From Phycisphaerae bacterium (GTDB lineage: Bacteria > Planctomycetota > Phycisphaerae > UBA1845 > Fen-1342), in the NCBI GenBank assembly GCA_030612705.1, contig JAUWNI010000004.1:4703-68702 (forward strand): 64,000 bases of DNA. Direction: 5' to 3'. The notes below the pieces were generated by a model. That model saw only the letters and a list, made by a program, of their open reading frames with translations, was not told where the DNA came from and searched no databases. A program made the translations under genes and the position numbers. Of this stretch, positions 29,590-39,621 are shown piece by piece. Each line of letters opens with the position of its first letter. The stretch's first letter is position 1.

Positions 29590-30483
29590 ATGAGAACGCA
29601 TGATGCAATCAAGGGCGCTGCAACAGGTGAATGTTCCCCTCTCGGGCCTTCCTGCGCGCAGCCCAACTTATTCTTGAGGCTCAAGGAGCTGGGGAAGATC
29701 AACCTCGTCCGGCCGCTCTACATCAGCGCATTTACTCTTGGCGTCTTGCTGGCCGGAACCGATCGGTTGCATGCCGATCCCCTGCCGGCGGCTGTCGAAA
29801 CACTGGAAATGATGATGGAGGCGATAGCGGCTGACGGGGAGTTTCTTGGTCGGCATTTTGGAGCAGACCCTGATAACCCGCTTTCCTTCACCGCCAACGT
29901 GGATCCCGACAATAAAACCTTCAACTATGCTTTCCAGCCGGAAACTACGTATGCTGGTGAGCCACTTTCACTTTCCGGTGACGGTTCCTTTGATGTTGAA
30001 AGCGACGCCTGGACGGGAGTCGCCAATGGCCAGTGCGGTGCCTCTGACGATCCTCCTTGGTGGGCCCAGTGGGAGTTCGACATCGATCACGGCGACCCCT
30101 ATGAGGGGAACTTCGATTGGGAAACGACCATTCTGGGCGTTAAGCTCGACGCTCATCGTCGGGTAACCATTGAATGGTCGGCGAGCGGCGGCTTTGCCCT
30201 GAGCACCGCAGATCTTGCGTTCACAATCAACGACACGGTCGTTGCAACAGGGACGGCAGAAGACCGCGTCGTCAGGCGGAGTCTCGAGTCCTACGACGTT
30301 TACTGGGGAACCACGACCGTTACGCTGGTTCCCCCGATCTTCGTGGTACTGGACGGCTCGTATGACGACGGCACTGGCCTCGCGACGGGCTCGTTGACCG
30401 TCATCCCCGAGCCGGCGTCGCTGGTGCTGCTTGCCCTCGGGGGTCTGGGTATTCTCCGGTGGCGGATCGTGCATCGGGCGTAA
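29590..30483 (+). CDS. PEP-CTERM sorting-domain secreted protein
   Basis: The C-terminus SLTVIPEPASLVLLALGGLGILRWRIVHRA is a canonical PEP-CTERM anchor (PEP, transmembrane segment, basic tail). AAGGAG lies upstream of the ATG. Confidence 0.8.
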   Translation: MRTHDAIKGAATGECSPLGPSCAQPNLFLRLKELGKINLVRPLYISAFTLGVLLAGTDRLHADPLPAAVETLEMMMEAIAADGEFLGRHFGADPDNPLSFTANVDPDNKTFNYAFQPETTYAGEPLSLSGDGSFDVESDAWTGVANGQCGASDDPPWWAQWEFDIDHGDPYEGNFDWETTILGVKLDAHRRVTIEWSASGGFALSTADLAFTINDTVVATGTAEDRVVRRSLESYDVYWGTTTVTLVPPIFVVLDGSYDDGTGLATGSLTVIPEPASLVLLALGGLGILRWRIVHRA

Positions 30484-30514: not shown

Positions 30515-30958
30515 TTCTCACTCGCTCGCCCCTGCGTTGCTCCACGGCGCGGGGGCGAGCTGCTTTTCGATACCATCGGCCGGGTCGCCCGCGTGACCGA
30601 CCTGCACCTGAAGATCGGCACGCCGCCGAGTTACCGCGTCGACGGTGAGCTCAAGATCACGAGTGGCCGGCCGCTCGACACGCACACAATAGAAGCGCTG
30701 ACACGCACGCCGCTCGACGAAGTCGAGCTGGCGACGCTGAGGAAGTTCCGCTCGGTCAACACCTCCCATCTGATCGACGGGATACGCTACCGCGTCAACA
30801 GCCTCTTCGACCGTCACGGGATGGCGCTGGCGATACGCGCGCTCGACGTCAGGACGCCGCAGATCGAGATGATCGGTTTTCCGAACGGGGTTTGGGAGGA
30901 CATCGTCAAGCTGGGCCAGGGGCTGGTGCTGGTGACGGGTACGACCGGCGCGGGCTGA
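30515..30958 (+). pseudogene. pilT: PilT/PilU-type type IV pilus retraction ATPase, N-terminal remnant ending inside Walker A
   Basis: The open frame reads ..ELLFDTIGRVARVTDLHLKIGTPPSYRVDGELK...IRYRVNSLFDRHGMALAIRAL...MIGFPNGVWEDIVKLGQGLVLVTGTTGAG*. Intact PilT continues GPTGSGKSTT... No ATG start is present (GTG at 30593). No further PilT-like frame is visible downstream. Confidence 0.75.
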
Positions 30959-31327
30959 ACAGAGCCCGAGGCGCGAGCGCGCGAATGGGCTCGGGCAATC
31001 GGCCGGTCCTGAACCACGGTCGGTCGGCCGACTTGGGGGCTTGCTCAGCCATGAGTGCAAAAGCCTCCACTCGCGCTTCGGGTTCTGATTTGGTACTCGG
31101 TCATGGCAGCGGTGCCGACACGTCAGCAGGCCCGCGAGCGGGCAAAAACTGGTGTTCTCGGCGGCATATTAGATCGTGCCATTCCGCCAGACGAATCGAA
31201 GCCGTTGAAGGGGGCCGCGATTCTCGTGCTCTGTCAGCCATGAAATGAAGGGTGGCACGGGTGTCCCGCCCGTGTGAATCTCGGGCGAGACGACCGGGCC
31301 ACCCACCAGTCTCGCATTTACTGAACA

Positions 31328-32074
31328 CTACGCTTGCGCAAGGATGGAATCGACGGTTCGGCAAAACACGTCGGGCTCTTCCAACATCATCAGATGACCA
31401 GTCTGAGCAATCTCGATGTACGAGCGGGCCGCGTCGCGGATGAAGTCGGGCACGTCCCAGGCTTCGGCGGATCGCTGCCCGGCGATCAAGTGGAGCGGCA
31501 CGTTTCGCTCGACGACCCGGCGGAAGGCGTCGAGAAAGGTTGGTCGACCCGTCTCCTCGATAATCGCCTTCGACATGGCGTAAATCGTTTCGGGTGGTTG
31601 GTGATCGAGAATGGCCGCGAGCCGCTCGATGCGTTGTTCGCTGGTCTCGATGCCCCAATCCACGGCACACGCGGGGACATCGTGCCGCATGGCGCGATAC
31701 TGATCCGACCATTCCTCCAACGACGTGGCGATGATTTTTCTCGACCAGAACGCGTCGTTGAGCGTGAAGTTGCCTTCAATGTTGATGATGCCGCGGACCA
31801 GCTCGGGCCGCTGATCCGCCGCCAGCATCGCCACCGCCCCGCCCATACTGTGGCCGAGGAGCCAGGCGGGCGTTTGGCAATACGTCTCCAGGTACGACAC
31901 GACATGCTCGGCCTGCGCCTGGAGCGTCAGCCGATCATGTGAAACGTCTTGCTCGTCGCCGTAGCCGAGCAAGTCGAGCGTGCGAACGTCGGCGTTGGCG
32001 ATCCGCGCGGCAGGATCGAAGTAATCCAACGAGCCGGCGAGACCGTGGATCAGGAGTAGTGCGGGCTTGAGCAT
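31328..32074 (-). CDS. Alpha/beta-fold hydrolase
   Basis: MLKPALLLIHGLAGS is followed by the nucleophile elbow LLGHSMGG and a C-terminal GHLMMLEEPD (catalytic His region). The start is chosen at the internal ATG at 32074; the tracked ORF begins at 32194. Confidence 0.85.
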   Translation of the reverse strand: MLKPALLLIHGLAGSLDYFDPAARIANADVRTLDLLGYGDEQDVSHDRLTLQAQAEHVVSYLETYCQTPAWLLGHSMGGAVAMLAADQRPELVRGIINIEGNFTLNDAFWSRKIIATSLEEWSDQYRAMRHDVPACAVDWGIETSEQRIERLAAILDHQPPETIYAMSKAIIEETGRPTFLDAFRRVVERNVPLHLIAGQRSAEAWDVPDFIRDAARSYIEIAQTGHLMMLEEPDVFCRTVDSILAQA

Positions 32075-32264
32075 GTTTGGGCCTTCGCGAACAGCGAATA
32101 TGTGCCATTGCTCTCTGAGTGGTACAATATCGCGGTAGCAAGGCACCGCTTCCTTGGATTGCCCACCCAACACTGGTACGCGTCTGTCATCCATACCCCC
32201 TGCGGTTTCGCCGTGCGTGCGGACGACAACCGGCCACCGAAGTGACGCAGAGCACGCCTCGTGG

Positions 32265-33779
32265 TCACGGCATCGCGTAATCGAGCGTCAGGATGAGCAA
32301 CTCGCCTTGGTCAATGTCGGTGGCATCGTAGATACGGTCGTGAACGCTGGTGCCACCCTGGAATGCCGTTGCCCGCCACAGGTACTTTGGGAAGGCTTTC
32401 CGTAGTACGTCCCAGCGTTTAGTAGGCGGCAAGCCAGTTGCCTGACATACGCTGGCCTTGAATTCATCCTCGGTAGTCAAGAATACTTCCCATTCGGGTT
32501 CGGGCGTTATGTGGTAGTTGGCTCGAACGTACGCATCAAAACGCAGAATCTTTAGGAGAATCGTATAAAAATCTATGCGAATTTTGTGATACACGGGTAC
32601 GATAATGGCTTCTGGGCCGAAGCAGACAGACCCGGGAATCCCGTCTCTACCGGCCCACGACGACCGCATTGTAAATGGCACGGTCTTTGCCATGCGCCCA
32701 TGGGCCACGAACAATCGCTGGGGGCCGAATTCCAGACGGGCAAAGGGGCCCACCTGGTCATCATGCACATACAGCTTGTCAATACGCGAGGAACGCAGCA
32801 ATGTTCCCGTGTCTGGATGCGCCGTACAGTCGGCCTTGCCGAGACTGTAGCCGGTGACAGCTACGGCGTGTCCCTCGTCCCAGCCGCCGCGGTACGGTTT
32901 CGCGAAACCGCAGCCCGAGACGTCGTACATCGCCGTATTCATTATCAAGGGGATCCGCGCTCGCAGGTAGGCGTACACGGTGGCCTGCAGAATCGCCGGT
33001 GTAGCTACGCCAACCACAACCGGCTCAAGGCCAGCTTTCTTGATCGCCGCGGCCATCTGCAGAGGAGTCAGTCCTTTATTCGGCACATCGCGTTGCAGAC
33101 CGGGGAATTGCTCCGTGGCGACGCGCGTGATCTCGACCGGGGACCAAATCTGATGTTGAAACAGCATCGCGGTTCCTTGAAGGGCCGACCAAAGCGCGCT
33201 CGTAGCACAAGCAGCTACGACCGTGTCTTGCTCCTGGAATGCAAGTGACTCGACAGTCAGCGTCATTCCAAGGAGATGCGCCTCGTAAGTGCGCTTGACA
33301 GAAAACTCGCGAGATCCATCCGAATCATAAGTCTTAAGGCACGTGCGCCCGACGAACGTCCGAGGTAGCGGTTTCACAACCACGAATCCAAGGTATGAAG
33401 TATCCAAGGCCTGTGCGTCGAGCGACTCCGACTTACCGGTCGTGGCGACGGCGCGTAATTGCGTCTCGTCGAAATCGGCTTGGAAGAAGTGCAATCTCGC
33501 GCATTCGGGAACGTACTTGGATTGAAAGCACCGAACGTAGTAGGCAGCGTAGTCTTCCAGGAAATCCCGATCCGTGTACTCCCACTCGACGACTATCGTG
33601 ATCGGACCTTTCGCCAGGAAGTAGCTGAAGTAGCTCTTGAAATAGTCGAAATGCTTCTTGCGTTGAACAGTCTCCTCGGTCGTGTTCGCAGCAGCAGCGG
33701 CGGCAAGAAGACGTCGCAGCAACTCGATCGAGTATTTGAAAACCTGGATGTGCTGCTTCTTATCGATTTGAACTGGCAC
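32265..33779 (-). CDS. Orphan 504-aa protein with a papain-fold-like thiol peptidase signature (C39/UCH-like Gln..Cys..His..Asp)
   Basis: The candidate catalytic residues are FQEQDTVVAACATSALWSALQ (Q182/Q184, C191), GHAVAVTGY (H304) and KLYVHDDQVGPF (D340/D341). Their order and spacing match papain-like peptidases. The N-terminal ~170 aa and C-terminal ~130 aa are unassigned. GTG start with AAGGGA upstream. GC is visibly lower than in neighbouring genes. Confidence 0.55.
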   Translation of the reverse strand: MPVQIDKKQHIQVFKYSIELLRRLLAAAAAANTTEETVQRKKHFDYFKSYFSYFLAKGPITIVVEWEYTDRDFLEDYAAYYVRCFQSKYVPECARLHFFQADFDETQLRAVATTGKSESLDAQALDTSYLGFVVVKPLPRTFVGRTCLKTYDSDGSREFSVKRTYEAHLLGMTLTVESLAFQEQDTVVAACATSALWSALQGTAMLFQHQIWSPVEITRVATEQFPGLQRDVPNKGLTPLQMAAAIKKAGLEPVVVGVATPAILQATVYAYLRARIPLIMNTAMYDVSGCGFAKPYRGGWDEGHAVAVTGYSLGKADCTAHPDTGTLLRSSRIDKLYVHDDQVGPFARLEFGPQRLFVAHGRMAKTVPFTMRSSWAGRDGIPGSVCFGPEAIIVPVYHKIRIDFYTILLKILRFDAYVRANYHITPEPEWEVFLTTEDEFKASVCQATGLPPTKRWDVLRKAFPKYLWRATAFQGGTSVHDRIYDATDIDQGELLILTLDYAMP

Positions 33780-33804
33780 GTGGGTCCCTTGCCGGACAGC
33801 GCCT

Positions 33805-33993
33805 TTACACGGTGGCGGCGCGGTCGAGCGCTTCCCTGCTCAGGCGCCGTTCTTCGCGGAGCGCACGTGCTGCTCGCTCAGCGCCGGGCGTCTTCGTCGC
33901 ATCGACGGAGGCCGCTTCCGACGCGCGCTTCGTGGCCTCTCGCAACACATCTGTCGCTGTATTCTTGGATGCGCTGTCACGCCGACTTTTCAT
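33805..33993 (-). CDS. Small highly charged helical protein (62 aa), unknown function
   Basis: A perfect AGGAGG lies 7 nt upstream of the ATG. The stop is 25 nt upstream of the 504-aa ORF start. The sequence reads MKSRRDSASKNTATDVLREATKRASEAASVDATKTPGAERAARALREERRLSREALDRAATV. Confidence 0.5.
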   Translation of the reverse strand: MKSRRDSASKNTATDVLREATKRASEAASVDATKTPGAERAARALREERRLSREALDRAATV

Positions 33994-34015
33994 GATGCTT
34001 CCTCCTAGATGCTAA

Positions 34016-34216
34016 CTAATACCTTGCATTAGATCGGCTCATCCGACCGATTCCAATAACGAGTGCCCCAAGGCATAGCCCTAACCCTATGCGTTGCGGC
34101 GACTTGCAATCAGCGCACAAAAGGCAATCATTCATGATATCCTGAGGTTGCGCGAATATCAACACGAGCATTGCACCGCGAACAAAGCTCGCAACAAACC
34201 AGATAGGCAGATACAA
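34016..34216 (-). CDS. Possible small membrane/Cys-rich peptide (66 aa from TTG; 39 aa from the internal ATG)
   Basis: The ORF contains CLLCADC followed by the hydrophobic IGLGLCLGALVIGIG. It has no convincing SD and a TTG start. It lies between the promoter candidate and the 62-aa ORF. Confidence 0.25.
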   Translation of the reverse strand: MYLPIWFVASFVRGAMLVLIFAQPQDIMNDCLLCADCKSPQRIGLGLCLGALVIGIGRMSRSNARY

Positions 34217-34244
34217 CAGATGCTACATCTTGAGTCTTGCCGCG

Positions 34245-34272
34245 AGAATACCCCAACATGATGAGGTGTCAA
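34245..34272 (-). promoter_or_regulatory. Near-consensus sigma-70 promoter (TTGACA-N16-TATTCT) for the low-GC cassette
   Basis: The minus strand reads TTGACAcctcatcatgttggggTATTCT. The -35 box is at 34272-34267 and the -10 box at 34250-34245. A second TTGACA lies 14 nt upstream. The element sits about 50 nt after the AAA+ gene stop. Confidence 0.5.
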
Positions 34273-34320
34273 GCGTCGTGATGTCAATTTCGAGCGCCCC
34301 TGGGTGGCCTGTTTAGCGGC

Positions 34321-35808
34321 TCAATCCGCCGGGACGCAGCGGCCGCGGGCCCATTGGCGGAGGTCTTCTACTTTTTCGGCCATGGTTACCGAGAGGGGCG
34401 GCGAGTTTTGCAGGGCGCGGAGGATGTGCTCCGTGCCGAGGCTTTCGTTTTGGGCGAATGCGTCGTGCAGGGATGAGAGGACGGCCTGCTCGATTTCGGC
34501 GCCGCTGAAGCCTTCGGACTCGCGGGCCAGGGCTTCGAGGTCGAAGTCGGCCGGGTCGCGCTTGCGCTTCTTGAGATGGATGGCGAAGATCTGGGCGCGG
34601 GTGTCCTCGCGCGGCAGATCGACGAAGAAGATCTCGTCGAAGCGGCCCTTGCGGAGCAACTCGGGCGGCAGGGCCTCGATGTCGTTGGCGGTCGCGACCA
34701 GAAACACCGGCTGGGCGTGCTCCTGCATCCAGGTCAGCAGCGTGCCGAACATGCGTTTTGACAGGCCGCCGTCGGTGGATTGGCTGGCGGCGGAGGCGAA
34801 GGCTTTTTCGATCTCGTCGATCCAGAGGATGATCGGGGCCATGGCTTCGGCCTGGGCGAGGGCGTCGCGGAGGCGGCGTTCGGACTCGCCTACGTAGCGG
34901 TCGTAGAGGGCGCCGACGTCCATGCGGAGCAGCGGGCGTTGCCAGGCGGTCGCGATGGCTTTGGCGCAGAGGCTTTTGCCGGCGCCCTGCACGCCGAGCA
35001 TCAGGACGCCGCGCGGGGCGGACAGGCCGTACTCGATGGCTTTTTCGGTGAGTGCGCCGTGACGTTGCTCGAGCCAGGTTTTGAGTCGGCGTAGGCCGCC
35101 GATTTCTTTGTTGTCGACCGGGGTCTCGACGAATTCGAGCAGGCCGGCGCCGCCGAGGGTTCGGCGTTTGCCGGCGAGGATGTGGTTGATGTCTTGCTCG
35201 TCGAATTTACGGTCGTCGGCGACGCAGTCGATGATGATGCGTTCGATCTGTCGGCGGGTGAGGCCGTGGAGGTTGCGGATGACGGTTTGCCAGCCGCCGC
35301 GGGTGATGTCGATGACGATCGGGCGCTCGCGGTGGGCTTTTCGGAGCGTTTCGCGGACGAGGGCCTTGATGTCCTTTTCGTCGGGCAGGGCGATCTCGAA
35401 GGGGGTGGCATAGGCCTTGACGACCTCGGACTTGATCGTCTCGTGGTCGATCATGACGAGTTGGCTGCCGGTGGTGCGGAACTGGTTTATCAGGTTTCGC
35501 CAGATGCGGAGCGTACGTTCCCGTGTAAGGTGTCCGGCGAGGTCGAGCGTGAGGCAGATCGGTTCGTTTTCGAGGCCGGCGAGGTGGATGAGGCCGGCGG
35601 CGGGGTCGGTGGTGTCGGGAATGGGTGGGCTGCCGGCGATGAGGCCGTCCTGCACGCCCCCGCTGAGCGACCACATTTGCAGGGGGCGTCTGAGCTTCAT
35701 GGCGGCGTCACGGATGAGGTGGAGGGCGTAGTCCTCTTCGAGCGTGACGATGGAGATACAGACGTGTCGGCAGCGTAGGAGTCTTTCGATGCGCTCTTCG
35801 TTGTTCAT
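34321..35808 (-). CDS. Ycf46-type AAA+ ATPase (495 aa)
   Basis: The motifs are GVLMLGVQGAGKSLCAKAIA (Walker A), PIILWIDEIEKAF (Walker B), VFLVATANDIEALPPELLRKGRFDEIFFVDLP and FSGAEIEQAV. The overall layout (an N-terminal ~230-aa domain plus a single AAA module) matches Ycf46-like proteins as I recall them. Confidence 0.8.
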   Translation of the reverse strand: MNNEERIERLLRCRHVCISIVTLEEDYALHLIRDAAMKLRRPLQMWSLSGGVQDGLIAGSPPIPDTTDPAAGLIHLAGLENEPICLTLDLAGHLTRERTLRIWRNLINQFRTTGSQLVMIDHETIKSEVVKAYATPFEIALPDEKDIKALVRETLRKAHRERPIVIDITRGGWQTVIRNLHGLTRRQIERIIIDCVADDRKFDEQDINHILAGKRRTLGGAGLLEFVETPVDNKEIGGLRRLKTWLEQRHGALTEKAIEYGLSAPRGVLMLGVQGAGKSLCAKAIATAWQRPLLRMDVGALYDRYVGESERRLRDALAQAEAMAPIILWIDEIEKAFASAASQSTDGGLSKRMFGTLLTWMQEHAQPVFLVATANDIEALPPELLRKGRFDEIFFVDLPREDTRAQIFAIHLKKRKRDPADFDLEALARESEGFSGAEIEQAVLSSLHDAFAQNESLGTEHILRALQNSPPLSVTMAEKVEDLRQWARGRCVPAD

Positions 35809-36399
35809 GGCGTCAGGCCTGCCTCACCAAAAGTTCGACGGTTGCCGCACGTGACGATTTGTACTTGCTGTCGTCGGTGGCGACAGAGAGCATAGTGTAA
35901 CTTCAACACTATGAATTCAAACCGCCAAGTCGACAAGAGCGCCGAGAAGGGTGGATGACGTTTCCGGCGGGGTGGTCGTCCCGCGCATGACCGTCATCCC
36001 GACGAGTCCGCCACGGGCGGGCGATGGAGGGATCCGGCCGCGAATCGCGAGCAACTCGATCGGCGCGGCAAGATTCCTCTGTGCTCTTCGGGGGCGGTCG
36101 GAATGCCAGGAAAGGCCATGACGGGAAAGGTGGGTGGGCGGTTTAGATTTGGGTGGCATGGGCAGGCTCGCCGAAGGTGAGTTTGCACGTGTTTTCGGAG
36201 GGAAGCCGGATGGATGCCTGAAGGTGTTTTCGGACAGTGCGATTCCGGAGGGTAAAAGGGGACATTCGTGACTGTCGCTAATTGTTGGAAGTCACGGGTT
36301 GGTCTCCCTGAACGGTTCGGGGCGCCGGGGAAATGTTGCGGCTCCGCTAACATATCGCGGCAATATTGCCGTGTGAAAATAGCATGCTGTCGAATAAGT

Positions 36400-36460: not shown

Positions 36461-38143
36461 CTAGGCTCCGTACCCATAAACCGCGAGCAGGGTGGCAAGA
36501 TCCGAAAGATCCACGTCGCCGTCAAGATCCAGGTCGCCGTCGATCCAGGATACGTCTTCGGTCGCACCGTAATTTGCGAGCAATGCCGCGAGATCCGAGA
36601 GATCGGTGTCGCCGTCAAGATCCACGTCGCCGGTCACCGGGTGCGTCCAGGCCGCGCCGCTGGTCGAATTGCTTTCCGGGAACGGGTGAGTCATCTCGAC
36701 CCATTCGCCGCCCCCGCCTTGTACGAGGTCGTAGACTTGCATGGGGACGTCGGCTCCGTACACGCTGACAAGGTACACCTTGTTTTCGCCGCAGGCCATG
36801 CCGCGCCCGGCACTGTTGGTGCCGGTAAACGGCCCGACGATATACGTCATCGTAGCCGTATCAACGTCGATGGAGTAAAGTCCCGTGGGGCTGCCGTACT
36901 CGGTGTAACCGTAGAGCAGTCCGTCCGCGGCGTTGTAATCGAGCGCGAAAAATCGCATCGAGCCGGTGTCGACCAAAAGCGTCATATCGCCGGTGTCGGG
37001 ATCGATCTCATAAATGCCCTTGGGGCTGGCATAGTTGGAGAAACCGAACAACCGGCCGTTCCCGTACGCCAGAGCGCTCACGTCCAATTGCAGATCACAC
37101 ATCTGAAACGCCGGCCCTTCCACGGGGGCCAGGAAAAGATCCGAATTGAAAGCGCCGTTGGCGAGGTACAGCGACCCGTCGGGAAGACCAGCGGCCGCGC
37201 TGACCGCGATTGTAAATCCGTTGTTCCACGTTACATCCGGGAAACCGCTCAGATCGGTGCTGCGCGTCGGCAAGTCGCCGTATTCCACGCCGGCAAAGAG
37301 CGGACGCGTGGGATCTAGCGGCTCGGAGCCGCCCTCCGGAAGAACGGAGATATCGTCGTAATAGACGGTGGTCTGATGCGGGGCGTAGAGGTCGATGTTT
37401 CCGATCGCAAGCTGGCCGACCGAACCCACGATCCAATCACCCGAGTACAACAGCTCGTTGTTGTAGTACTCGTCGATCGTGCCGAGCCCGCCGCTCAGAT
37501 CCACCTCGATGCGAATTTCAACCCACTGGTCATAGATGATCGGAAGAGTGCTCGAGCCGCCCGGATCGCGCAGTTGATCATTCACCTGATCGGTAGCCGG
37601 ATCAAAATGAATCTCGACAGTCCAAAAATATGGACCGCCATGCTCGTAGTAGCTGTTCACCACGAAGTACGTGATGCCCGTCAGGTCCGAGGGGATGTAC
37701 TGCCAGGCGGTGATGATCCACTGCCCGCCTTCAAAACCCGACAGCGGGTGAATCGCGTCCACCGCCGTGTCATTAACCGAGATCGAATGCGGCGTTGAAT
37801 GCGCCTGAGCATCCGAAACAACGCCGGCGGCGGCGGGATCGTCGTCCCAACCCGTCCAGCCGCCCACGTTGTACAGCAGCGTTCCGTTCTCATAACTATC
37901 AAAATTATCAGACCAACCTTCGTCGGGCGGATCGCCGTCGAGGCACGGATTCGGCCAGCAGACCGTGTCGTCACCCTGGTACTCACCGCCGTTATCGAGG
38001 CAGAACGTCTCCGTCACTTGCAGGCATCCGTTGGTGTAGAAGCAACAGGCCCCTACCGGGTCGCCGAGCTCGGGACCTGGTTGTCCATAGGCCATGCCGG
38101 CCGTCAACAAAATGAGTGCCGTTGCCAGAAAAACCATCCGCAT
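36461..38143 (-). CDS. Secreted protein with a C-terminal dockerin-like (EF-hand type) tandem repeat
   Basis: The signal peptide is MRMVFLATALILLTAGMAYG. The C-terminus reads GDVDLDGDTDLSDLAALLANYG...GDLDLDGDVDLSDLATLLAVYGYGA. Confidence 0.75.
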   Translation of the reverse strand: MRMVFLATALILLTAGMAYGQPGPELGDPVGACCFYTNGCLQVTETFCLDNGGEYQGDDTVCWPNPCLDGDPPDEGWSDNFDSYENGTLLYNVGGWTGWDDDPAAAGVVSDAQAHSTPHSISVNDTAVDAIHPLSGFEGGQWIITAWQYIPSDLTGITYFVVNSYYEHGGPYFWTVEIHFDPATDQVNDQLRDPGGSSTLPIIYDQWVEIRIEVDLSGGLGTIDEYYNNELLYSGDWIVGSVGQLAIGNIDLYAPHQTTVYYDDISVLPEGGSEPLDPTRPLFAGVEYGDLPTRSTDLSGFPDVTWNNGFTIAVSAAAGLPDGSLYLANGAFNSDLFLAPVEGPAFQMCDLQLDVSALAYGNGRLFGFSNYASPKGIYEIDPDTGDMTLLVDTGSMRFFALDYNAADGLLYGYTEYGSPTGLYSIDVDTATMTYIVGPFTGTNSAGRGMACGENKVYLVSVYGADVPMQVYDLVQGGGGEWVEMTHPFPESNSTSGAAWTHPVTGDVDLDGDTDLSDLAALLANYGATEDVSWIDGDLDLDGDVDLSDLATLLAVYGYGA

Positions 38144-38385
38144 GTCTTAACCTCCTTGTGTTTTTGCCGTCGCTACCGCGCGACACAGCACGGAGCAGAA
38201 CAAATACGTAGACCGTGAATTAGCGAAGTTTCGCAAATATGTGCTTGAAACCACATCGCATGTCTAGATTAAACATTTGGATAATATATTGCAATATCAA
38301 AATCAAAAAATGCGTAAGAATTTGACATTCAATCTCCTATGGGCCATATTGGTTATTGAAAACTCCAGCGTTTGGTAATCATAAT

Positions 38386-39621
38386 ATGAGCAGAACTCTT
38401 GAACAGGATTCATCTCCCAACTTCATGGTTGGAGCGGAATATGCGATTCGAGAGTTGCGCGATGCCATCGGCTCTATCATCGCCAGCATTCCTGGCTTTT
38501 CCTATGGTCGTCCGAACGATCTCGCCGTCGAATTGGGTCTTGATCCCAAACTGGCCTGGAACGTGGGACGTTGCCTCGAAGGTTCCGATCAATTCGCTTC
38601 GGCGAAATATATCCCCGGGCCAACCGGCATGCGCACGCTGCTGCGCGCGGCCAAGCGACGAAACGCACCGGAAGAGGTGCTCGAACAAACCCGATCGGCG
38701 TTCGAGTCTTTTCACGAATTGGTGCAAAAGCACGCCGGCTCCCGCAAGCATTTCAACATGCTCGCCGCGGGTTTGTCGATAACGGACAGCGCTCGTGCCG
38801 ATCTAGAGCATCGCCGCATGTTGTTCGACGGCAGTACATATATCTGGGGAGTTCAGGCGCGCACGCTTTTCCGGACTTATATAGTGCGCCCTTCCGACGA
38901 AAATGCGGCTACATACGACTTGGCGACGGTGCGCGGTCTCGTTGATTTCACGCGCATGAGACCGAATATCGCTTGGCGATTTACGCTGCCGTCCTCGACC
39001 GACGACGACGAAATCACACGCGCGAACGTGGTTCACGTGGCCCTGGACCCGCGAGTCAAGGGGTCGGTTCCCATGCTCTCGAATTTTTGCACTCACCCTC
39101 TGCCGGAATTTCGCCGGCGAGCCGACTCCGGCAACACGCGCGAATTCGAGCTCGTCGAAAGCTCGGTCGGCATTTCGGGACGCGCGACATACGTGGTCGG
39201 CGAGTTGTTGCCGCAACTTGAACCGCGCTATCATCGGCCGCTGTATCGCGATTTTTGCGTGTCCTACGTGATTCGCACGCCGGCCAGGAATTTGGTTTGC
39301 GATCTCCTAATTCACCGAGACCTGTTCCCTGACAGGGATCCACCCTCGGTCGAGTTGTACAGCGACCTGTTTAATTACGGAATCGTGATCAAGTACACGG
39401 AATCTGACCGGATGCCCGTGCATGAAACCCTGGAGAGGCTCGGCGACGGATCGGAAGCGGCCTTTACACCCGAAATTCCGCGCTATCCGGAAATGCTGCG
39501 GTACGTGCTGGATCGAGTGGGCTGGAACGGCGACGAATTCGATTTCTATCGTTTACGAATGCAATATCCCCCTATCCACACTACGCTGATGCTGCGCAAA
39601 CCGCTACCGGAGCCGGGATAA
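38386..39621 (+). CDS. Hypothetical protein (411 aa), no recognisable motif
   Basis: This is a long ORF with coding-like composition, preceded by an AT-rich 240-bp spacer. The start is chosen at the ATG at 38386; the tracked ORF begins at the TTG at 38356. Confidence 0.6.
   Translation: MSRTLEQDSSPNFMVGAEYAIRELRDAIGSIIASIPGFSYGRPNDLAVELGLDPKLAWNVGRCLEGSDQFASAKYIPGPTGMRTLLRAAKRRNAPEEVLEQTRSAFESFHELVQKHAGSRKHFNMLAAGLSITDSARADLEHRRMLFDGSTYIWGVQARTLFRTYIVRPSDENAATYDLATVRGLVDFTRMRPNIAWRFTLPSSTDDDEITRANVVHVALDPRVKGSVPMLSNFCTHPLPEFRRRADSGNTREFELVESSVGISGRATYVVGELLPQLEPRYHRPLYRDFCVSYVIRTPARNLVCDLLIHRDLFPDRDPPSVELYSDLFNYGIVIKYTESDRMPVHETLERLGDGSEAAFTPEIPRYPEMLRYVLDRVGWNGDEFDFYRLRMQYPPIHTTLMLRKPLPEPG

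Follow-up and report, generated by a model that had tools for sequence, protein, structure and literature searches.

Bases 32265-34006 of a 64-kb stretch of DNA from a Phycisphaerae bacterium (assembly GCA_030612705.1, contig JAUWNI010000004.1) form a self-contained two-gene cassette, which encodes a predicted papain-fold cysteine peptidase of 504 amino acids (aa) and, directly 5' of it, a charged protein of 62 aa. (The whole 64-kb stretch is called the window below, and all coordinates are window positions.) Comparison with related loci shows that the small gene and the peptidase gene move between genomes as a unit. As judged from sequence, the cassette is probably a conflict or defence module, and among the ways in which it might work we tentatively favour a toxin-antitoxin-like or abortive-infection-like pair, composed of a protease and its inhibitor. 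The fold and chemistry of the peptidase are of a known kind (clan CA); the family, its N-terminal domain, its obligatory small partner, and its link with Bub and CapH genes are undescribed in the libraries and literature searched. The cassette is a clean and testable candidate system, the mechanism of which is not proven to be new.

The peptidase and its partner gene

Both genes are read from the minus strand. In the table of open reading frames (ORFs), the small gene (33805-33993) starts with ATG and the peptidase gene (32265-33779) with GTG; an AGGAGG ribosome-binding site (34001-34006, minus strand) lies 7 nucleotides (nt) 5' of the ATG, and a spacer of 25 nt separates the stop codon of the first gene from the GTG of the second. 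This arrangement had been proposed in a first-pass annotation made from the letters alone, and direct reading of the sequence bears it out. The same annotation had placed a TTGACA-N16-TATTCT about 50 nt past the stop codon of an upstream AAA+ gene. A promoter pattern scan finds it at 34272-34245, 49 nt past that stop, where it is one of two overlapping sigma-70-like sites (34245-34287, minus strand; TTGACA-N18-CATCAT and TTGACA-N16-TATTCT) recognised by consensus match only. A third promoter-like site lies at 34162-34134 in the same intergenic stretch. Within the surrounding 4.7 kb (31200-35900) there are four such sites versus 1.1 expected, and three of the four fall in the intergenic stretch upstream of the cassette. 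The cassette is probably driven from the sites at 34245-34287.

The 504-aa protein was described as an orphan in the first-pass annotation. It is far from being one: at least 1,595 homologs were found among 8,000 candidates scored, and an exhaustive profile search returns 4,742 clusters at 50% identity with E <= 1e-3 (2,185 with E <= 1e-30). When the genomes of 185,579 species are considered (one genome per species), 243 genomic stretches encode the family. The family spans at least 15 phyla, including Planctomycetota, Bacteroidota, Cyanobacteria, Pseudomonadota, and Desulfobacterota, as well as Nitrospirota, Armatimonadota, Zixibacteria, Omnitrophota, and Myxococcota. The window's protein has no match in Pfam, NCBIfam, or PADLOC, and neither single-sequence nor profile searches of PDB sequences return anything meaningful. 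No family homolog was found in 50,697 phage records, a result that is neutral for the reading favoured here. A DNA-level search of E. coli genomes with a plasmid-borne relative gave no match, searches of the viral structures in BFVD gave weak matches only (including phage endolysins and uncharacterized phage proteins), and a search of the accessible literature library found no paper describing the family.

The central part of the protein (residues ~179-400; 32580-33245, minus strand) is a predicted papain-fold cysteine peptidase core, as defined by Foldseek matches and invariant residues. Conservation was measured over 83 aligned family sequences, including relatives at 26-31% identity. The putative catalytic set consists of Q184 (codon at 33228-33230), C191 (33207-33209), H304 (32868-32870), and D340 (32760-32762), all on the minus strand; all 83 sequences have these residues unchanged, together with W197, H339, and D341, and D185 is invariant or nearly so. 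The Gln-Cys-His-Asp signature that the first-pass annotation had read, with D340/D341 in its last position, is present in every one of the aligned sequences, in the order Gln-Cys-His-Asp/Asn that is characteristic of papain-like enzymes. An AlphaFold2 (AF2) model of the full-length protein, built from 36 sequences, has a predicted local distance difference test score (pLDDT) of 85.3 and a predicted template modelling score (pTM) of 0.84. The Foldseek matches of this model are to the papain fold, in which the helix with the nucleophilic cysteine packs against a sheet that carries the histidine and the Asp/Asn. The best match in the PDB is prostaphopain B (1x9y, E 3.4e-5), followed by staphopains to E 8.5e-4 (probability 1.00). 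For the staphopain structures 1pxv and 1y4h the template modelling (TM) score is 0.53-0.54 when normalised by the length of the target, which is the mature enzyme, and identity to staphopain is 12-14%. C39-type domains are matched as well, namely PCAT1 (9azl, probability 1.00), LahT150 (6mpz), and ComA (5xe8); further matches are phytochelatin synthase (6th5) and, weakly, UfSP (5ejj; E 0.16-0.43, probability 0.41-0.57).

Taken together, the model and the alignment support placing the core in the C47/C39/C39_2/BtrH_N/C83 sub-cluster of papain-like clan CA enzymes, as that sub-cluster is defined in PMC10318531, and the protein is predicted to be a peptidase. The first-pass proposal of a papain fold with C39-like and BtrH-like look-alikes thus stands, with additional support from a Peptidase_C39_2 match in one relative. 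This relative, a 726-aa protein from a P. aeruginosa plasmid, scores 24.7 bits and is the sole one above the gathering threshold of PF13529 (24 bits). Only 4 of 36 family members give weak matches to this model (best E 0.0059, 17.6 bits), and the window's protein is unmatched even at E <= 5; because of this pattern we regard the family as separate and unnamed, related to PF13529. It does not have the hallmarks of C39 proper (PF03412), since an ABC exporter is not a conserved neighbour and a GG motif is lacking from the small proteins. Confidence in the model is lowest (pLDDT <50) for the glutamine loop, residues 181-190 (FQEQDTVVAA; 33210-33239), a stretch that is among the best conserved of the family. 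This loop might serve as a mobile lid, or might take on order only upon partner binding.

The core is flanked by two further domains. The first, an alpha/beta domain comprising residues 1-178 (33246-33779, minus strand), is delimited by an AF2 domain model; modelled alone it has pLDDT 90.6 and pTM 0.88, and Foldseek finds no fold match for it in the PDB (best E 1.2, probability 0.08). Twelve of its residues are invariant in the 83 sequences (E65, Y68, D76, Y81, R95, H97, F99, Y129, G131, G144, T146, and G171). The domain is thus as rich in invariant residues as the catalytic core, which argues for a specific binding or catalytic site within it. It could represent a fold not seen before or, failing that, a novel sensor domain. 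A zinc site formed by C84, C93, H97, and C147 was considered and dropped; the three cysteines are not invariant, which makes such a site unlikely. A PD-(D/E)xK nuclease assignment was likewise rejected: one family member matches PDDEXK_13 at E 0.016, but the domain model has no PDB match. The second flanking domain (residues ~401-504 and stop codon; 32265-32579, minus strand) is also alpha/beta, according to the full-length model and the alignment, and no fold match was obtained for it. Most relatives carry beyond this a tail of ~35 aa with the motif W-x-I-x-x-W-F, which is absent from the window's clade, and some plasmid relatives have ~200 further C-terminal residues without a Pfam match. 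No signal sequence is apparent by inspection of the 504-aa protein, so it is presumably cytoplasmic.

On comparative grounds, the 62-aa ORF is a genuine conserved partner of the peptidase gene. A small upstream ORF of 52-70 aa is found in about 90% of related loci, across at least 15 phyla, and in every context that was inspected individually an ORF of 57-67 aa lies directly 5' of the peptidase gene. The gap between the two genes has a median of 10.5 nt; it is <=25 nt in 52 of 56 loci, and in 6 the genes overlap. The pair therefore constitutes a tightly coupled bicistron with the small gene first, as in type II toxin-antitoxin systems. In the first-pass annotation both tiny ORFs of the block had been offered as possible partners, a suggestion that is upheld for the 62-aa ORF by its conserved upstream counterparts and fails for a 66-aa ORF (34016-34216, minus strand; ORF table). 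The latter overlaps promoter- and terminator-like matches, its tblastn matches are confined to its own genome (L001), with none in any of the about 85 related loci, and it is probably spurious.

Residues K, R, D, and E make up 40% of the 62-aa protein, which ends in ...RRLSREALDRAATV-COOH. It has no match in Pfam, NCBIfam, or PADLOC, and a profile search with it returns only 21 tiny hypothetical proteins. When the small proteins are aligned, they share a W-x-x-S-x-x-G motif and the C-terminus ...R-x-[VIL]-D-P-x-x-L-x-E-P-h-T-[LVI]-COOH. In a count without any filter, 55 of 83 loci have T-[LVI] as the end of the closest upstream ORF, and about a dozen more have related P-h-x-h variants there. 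(The 57 aligned small proteins had been chosen by their last five residues, which leaves conservation free of selection bias only at the positions before these; there, L occupies position -6 in 46 of 57 proteins and V, I, or L position -11 in 56 of 57.) In the window's clade the C-terminal motif is modified (AATV), and in the plasmid relatives at 26-31% identity an upstream ORF of 52-60 aa is kept and the motif is gone. Such sequence divergence in distant relatives is as expected of a co-evolving binding partner. The C-terminal tail of the peptidase and the motifs of the small protein are lost together in one clade, which is weak evidence because it is confined to that single clade. No fusion of the two proteins occurs among 261 family members.

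Mobility and genomic surroundings

The first-pass annotation held that the block is lower in GC and was acquired horizontally, and both claims are supported. The GC content of 32265-34272 is 56.1% versus 61.4% for the window (z = -2.4, within the lowest 2.3% of 2-kb windows), and among the 35 long ORFs of the window the 504-aa ORF has the lowest GC; its GC at third codon positions is 0.65 versus 0.75 +/- 0.09, only about 1 standard deviation low. The deviation in composition is real but moderate. In three relatives the cassette is missing beside the orthologous AAA+ gene (81-85% identical), and the downstream genes all differ. The lower GC, this absence, the scatter of the 243 stretches over many phyla, and the varying neighbours are all consistent with horizontal acquisition. 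No convincing direct or inverted repeats that would mark an insertion flank the cassette.

When as many as five ORFs to either side of the cassette are compared all-versus-all over 82 loci, no further neighbour recurs in >8 of them. Scanned against Pfam and PADLOC, the two neighbours on the upstream side are a mixture. Some are housekeeping genes, for example those for iPGM, thymidylate synthase, argininosuccinate synthase, and DnaA; others are mobile or defence genes, for example those for type IIG and type I restriction-modification, DISARM DrmA/D/MI, BrxH, integrases, and a DDE transposase. The four copies carried on plasmids are located close to insertion sequence (IS) elements, a TrlF ATPase, a caspase-family gene, a DEAD/DEAH-box helicase, and Bub operons. 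In a metagenome-assembled Phycisphaerae genome (L007, 9631-17569) the cassette stands beside an apparent defence island with an AAA_15 ATPase, a 1,100-aa Eco57I/MmeI-type methyltransferase, and a PLD-SNF2 helicase.

An operon for an E1 enzyme (ThiF) and a gene for a CapH-like helix-turn-helix (HTH) protein adjoin the cassette in 12 of ~87 distinct loci. In a neighbour-joining tree the Bub/E1-adjacent peptidases fall into at least 8 separate lineages, so the association arose repeatedly. The clearest layout is seen in the cultured Methylotenera versatilis 7 (L049, 11565-15230), where a complete type I Bub operon (types as defined in PMC11601596), encoding Multi_ubiq and Prok-E2_E, Prok-JAB and ThiF, and DUF6527, is accompanied by CapH and CapP and is directly convergent with the cassette, so that this strain would lend itself to experiments. 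Bub-type genes are also found beside the cassette in L043, on the P. aeruginosa plasmid, and on a Mesorhizobium plasmid, and in L089 the cassette lies at the 3' end of a Bub operon. The order CapH, small gene, peptidase gene, without CapP, occurs in L005/L024, L031, L043, and L060; in L038 CapH, CapP, the small gene, and the peptidase gene follow each other on one strand. The cassette is convergent with CapP-CapH in L047, L049, and L054 and with the E1 gene in L092, and in L004 an XRE-family HTH gene lies directly 5' of it.

Bub operons are rare, with 544 catalogued (PMC11601596), and the ~14% adjacency to Bub/E1 genes, judged without a formal background rate, is expected to be far above chance. 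Published inspections of Bub neighbourhoods report CapW, CapH with CapP, and CapK with CapS, without mention of the cassette (PMC11601596; PMC13373217). As the targets and physiological role of Bub remain unknown (PMC11601596, PMC13373217), the repeated adjacency offers an unexpected handle on these systems. The 64-kb window itself contains no homologs of Bub, CapH, or CapP; none of the operon components (Ubl, E2, E1, DUF6527) is present in it, and the cassette is not among the components defined for Bub (PMC11601596). A resemblance between the CapH C-terminal 'LRxDPxL' and the 'RxVDPxxL' of the small protein was not counted as evidence, given that the spacing differs.

A separate observation concerns L005, L031, and L060, in which the ThiF gene is accompanied by genes for three small proteins without a Pfam match. 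In L005 (5160-7106, minus strand) the products are a 280-aa ThiF-family E1 and proteins of 169, 110, and 90 aa, and the operon is divergent from the gene for the CapH-like HTH protein. These genes possibly constitute an E1-centred system, akin to Bub or Bil, that has yet to be described.

Upstream of the cassette lies the AAA+ gene (34321-35808, minus strand), whose 495-aa product has a CDC48/PAN-like AAA module at residues ~230-455 preceded by ~230 aa without a Pfam match. At E <= 1e-50 its homologs number about 8,000, and among the 120 matches listed identity is 63-99%, length mostly ~495 aa, and the named sources Planctomycetota/Phycisphaerae. Because its homologs are numerous, similar in length, and from this lineage wherever the source is named, the AAA+ gene looks like a conserved lineage gene, and it does not belong to the cassette. 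Downstream, an alpha/beta-hydrolase gene (31328-32194) was tried as a further partner and rejected, as weak distant matches are seen only in L005/L006/L024 and L040, on the opposite strand or far off.

Farther out, a 121-aa ORF (30593-30958, plus strand) resembles the N-terminal part of a PilT/T2SSE-type ATPase and ends within a Walker-A-like GTTGAG. It had been called a decayed pilT gene; the fragment is there and is probably the remnant of a truncated gene, but its match to Pfam T2SSE is weak (E 0.0085, below the Pfam cut-off) and the rest of the gene was not found in another frame. Two neighbouring products are likely secreted or on the surface: a 297-aa PEP-CTERM protein (29590-30483, plus strand; E 9.6e-5) and a 560-aa protein (36461-38143, minus strand) with DUF6923 repeats and, toward its C-terminus, D-x-D-x-D-G repeats that look dockerin-like by eye. 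Just past the 560-aa gene, at approximately 38000-38750, GC dips to 0.47-0.50, which is sharper than the dip of the cassette.

Possible functions of the pair

A protease and inhibitor acting in the manner of toxin and antitoxin, or in abortive infection, is the explanation toward which we lean, with reservations. The small protein, made in excess from its stronger translation signal, would bind the peptidase, and its conserved C-terminal tail might occupy the substrate cleft and inhibit the enzyme as a pseudo-substrate, a detail that is pure inference. A stress or phage cue, perhaps sensed through the invariant polar site in the N-terminal domain, would then remove or outcompete the small protein, and the freed peptidase would cut cellular or phage proteins; at loci adjoining Bub/CapH operons, the target could possibly be the HTH repressor. 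Several observations point toward this scheme. The small gene comes first, with gaps of 1-25 nt and 6 overlaps, as in antitoxin-toxin operons, and in the window it has AGGAGG and ATG where the peptidase gene has GTG. The partner diverges rapidly while the active site stays invariant; the closest fold, staphopain, provides the precedent of a co-encoded inhibitor (staphostatin); and the distribution is mobile, patchy, and partly associated with defence islands.

Other observations weigh against a toxin-antitoxin-like role. No DNA-binding domain can be recognised in the small protein, unlike in most type II antitoxins, and neither cassette protein matches any of the 5,027 models of PADLOC-DB v2.0.0 at E <= 1. 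Many loci, the window included, lie amid housekeeping genes rather than in defence islands, and enrichment of defence genes around the cassette was judged without a background rate and is hence unquantified. In addition, a strictly positioned T-[LVI]-COOH is no less compatible with a substrate that undergoes processing than with an inhibitor.

This last point leads to the alternative of dedicated processing or tagging, to which we assign a minor share of the probability. Here the small protein would be the substrate, its C-terminus being trimmed or forming an acyl-enzyme, in the manner of Atg4 and UfSP with Atg8 and UFM1, of C39 domains with leader peptides, or of sortase with LPXTG. This would give rise to an effector in its mature form, a signal, or a protein tag, which might act together with the neighbouring Bub machinery. 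The C-terminus does have a fixed length and a conserved motif, with T-[LVI] at the end in the 55 of 83 loci noted above; the fold neighbours (C39, LahT150, ComA, UfSP) mostly cut small proteins or peptides at one defined site; and operons for conjugation of ubiquitin-like (Ubl) proteins adjoin the cassette recurrently in independent lineages. However, the small protein has no Gly-Gly motif, transporter partner, signal peptide, or hydrophobic character, and its motif is lost in distant relatives and altered in the window's clade while the active site remains invariant. Moreover, ~86% of loci have no E1/Ubl genes within 10 kb, the window has none in its 64 kb, and the two proteins are never fused in the 261 members.

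The CapH-associated loci raise the possibility of a regulatory protease resembling CapP or IrrE, which upon a damage or infection cue would cut a CapH-like HTH repressor, with the small protein serving as a brake. CapH/CapP and CapK/CapS are established partner modules that control a repressor beside immune operons (10.1101/2022.04.27.489752; PMC13373217) and furnish the precedents. In keeping with them, the cassette takes the place that CapP has in L049 in L005/L024, L031, L043, and L060, it follows CapH and CapP on one strand in L038, and it has the XRE-family gene immediately upstream in L004. Yet most loci, including the window, have no adjoining HTH gene or immune operon, CapP is present as well in four loci, and in L047, L049, L054, and L092 the cassette is convergent with, not upstream of, the operon that would be regulated. 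We consider this role unlikely.

If the peptidase instead served routine housekeeping or the stress response, aided by a small chaperone or adaptor and with no relation to genetic conflict, this would account for the many loci between iPGM, argininosuccinate synthase, and thymidylate synthase and for the lack of matches to defence models. Such a role is improbable in view of the very sparse and phylogenetically scattered family, a genomic position that varies even among close relatives, the plasmid-borne copies beside IS elements, a GC content below that of the host genome, and the recurrence of Bub operons, restriction-modification, and DISARM genes next to it. Comparably speculative is a broader proposal, which takes the cassette for a widespread and hitherto unrecognised module of immunity or signalling built on a protease: the N-terminal domain, with its polar cluster of E65, D76, R95, H97, and T146, would be a new sensor, and the peptidase would trim or transpeptidate the C-terminus of its partner, giving a switch or tag without a ubiquitin-like signature that is functionally coupled with Bub systems rather than merely sharing islands with them. 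We give it a low probability.

Finally, an IetAS-like ATPase-protease defence system made of the AAA+ protein and the peptidase can be set aside as highly improbable: the AAA+ gene is directly upstream on the same strand and its product matches PADLOC IetA (E 2e-27) and NCBIfam IteA_antiphage (E 3.5e-24), but these matches span the generic AAA module only, higher scores are obtained with CDC48, PAN, and FtsH models, the 85.6 bits of the NCBIfam match fall short of a cut-off of 510, a 327-nt gap with promoter-like sites lies between the AAA+ gene and the peptidase gene, no S8 protease is present to play the adjacent IetS subtilase, and the pairing is excluded, as far as the comparative data go, by lack of co-occurrence, since the AAA+ gene occurs as a conserved lineage gene without the cassette in three relatives and this ATPase adjoins the peptidase only in the window's own genome (the sole other match, in L050, being weak and ~8 kb off).

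The toxin-antitoxin-like protease and inhibitor remain the tentative choice. If the cassette is a conflict module of that kind, the known toxin-antitoxin and defence effectors of bacteria would gain a class of cysteine peptidases; in any case, a large unnamed family that no Pfam, NCBIfam, or PADLOC model covers, with a confident structure model and an obvious predicted catalytic site, is easily testable.

Comparison with known systems

Staphopain (MEROPS C47) and staphostatin are the nearest precedent, because they combine the best core fold match, a papain fold with Cys-His, with the presence of a bacterial peptidase and a small partner in one operon; staphopain (1pxv, 1y4h) likewise has an inhibitor of its own encoded beside it. 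The enzyme is secreted carrying a propeptide, and its gene is followed by that of staphostatin, a beta-barrel of ~105-110 aa. The cassette peptidase, unlike staphopain, has no signal peptide and carries two extra domains, and its partner of ~60 aa has no recognisable domain and is encoded upstream.

The C39/Peptidase_C39_2 enzymes (PF03412, PF13529; PCAT1, LahT150, ComA) belong to the same papain sub-cluster (PMC10318531), and they act on one small cognate peptide, which is reminiscent of a peptidase with one small partner. In contrast to them, the window's protein has no Pfam match and no ABC transporter, the partner has neither a double-glycine leader nor a secretion signal, and the N- and C-terminal domains of the cassette peptidase are not found in C39 enzymes. 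With the UfSP/Atg4-type proteases the cassette shares a fold match (UfSP, 5ejj) and a partner whose C-terminus is conserved and strictly positioned; unlike the modifiers that those enzymes process, this partner shows no sign of a beta-grasp (no domain match) and has no C-terminal Gly.

The likeness to CapH/CapP (IrrE/DdrO, ImmA/ImmR) is one of position. In ~6 loci the cassette comes right after a CapH-like HTH gene, at the usual place of CapP near Bub, which suggests a signal-responsive protease. CapP is a zinc metallopeptidase (Peptidase_M78) with a GAF domain, and its fold is unrelated to that of the cassette peptidase. Unlike CapH/CapP, most cassettes have no HTH neighbour, and the small partner is not DNA-binding by the tests run.

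From type II toxin-antitoxin systems the cassette differs in that its putative toxin is large (500-730 aa) and a peptidase, and in that its small protein has no recognisable DNA-binding domain. With these systems it shares the two-gene organisation with the small gene first, the tight or overlapping junctions, the mobile and patchy occurrence, and a small partner that diverges fast.

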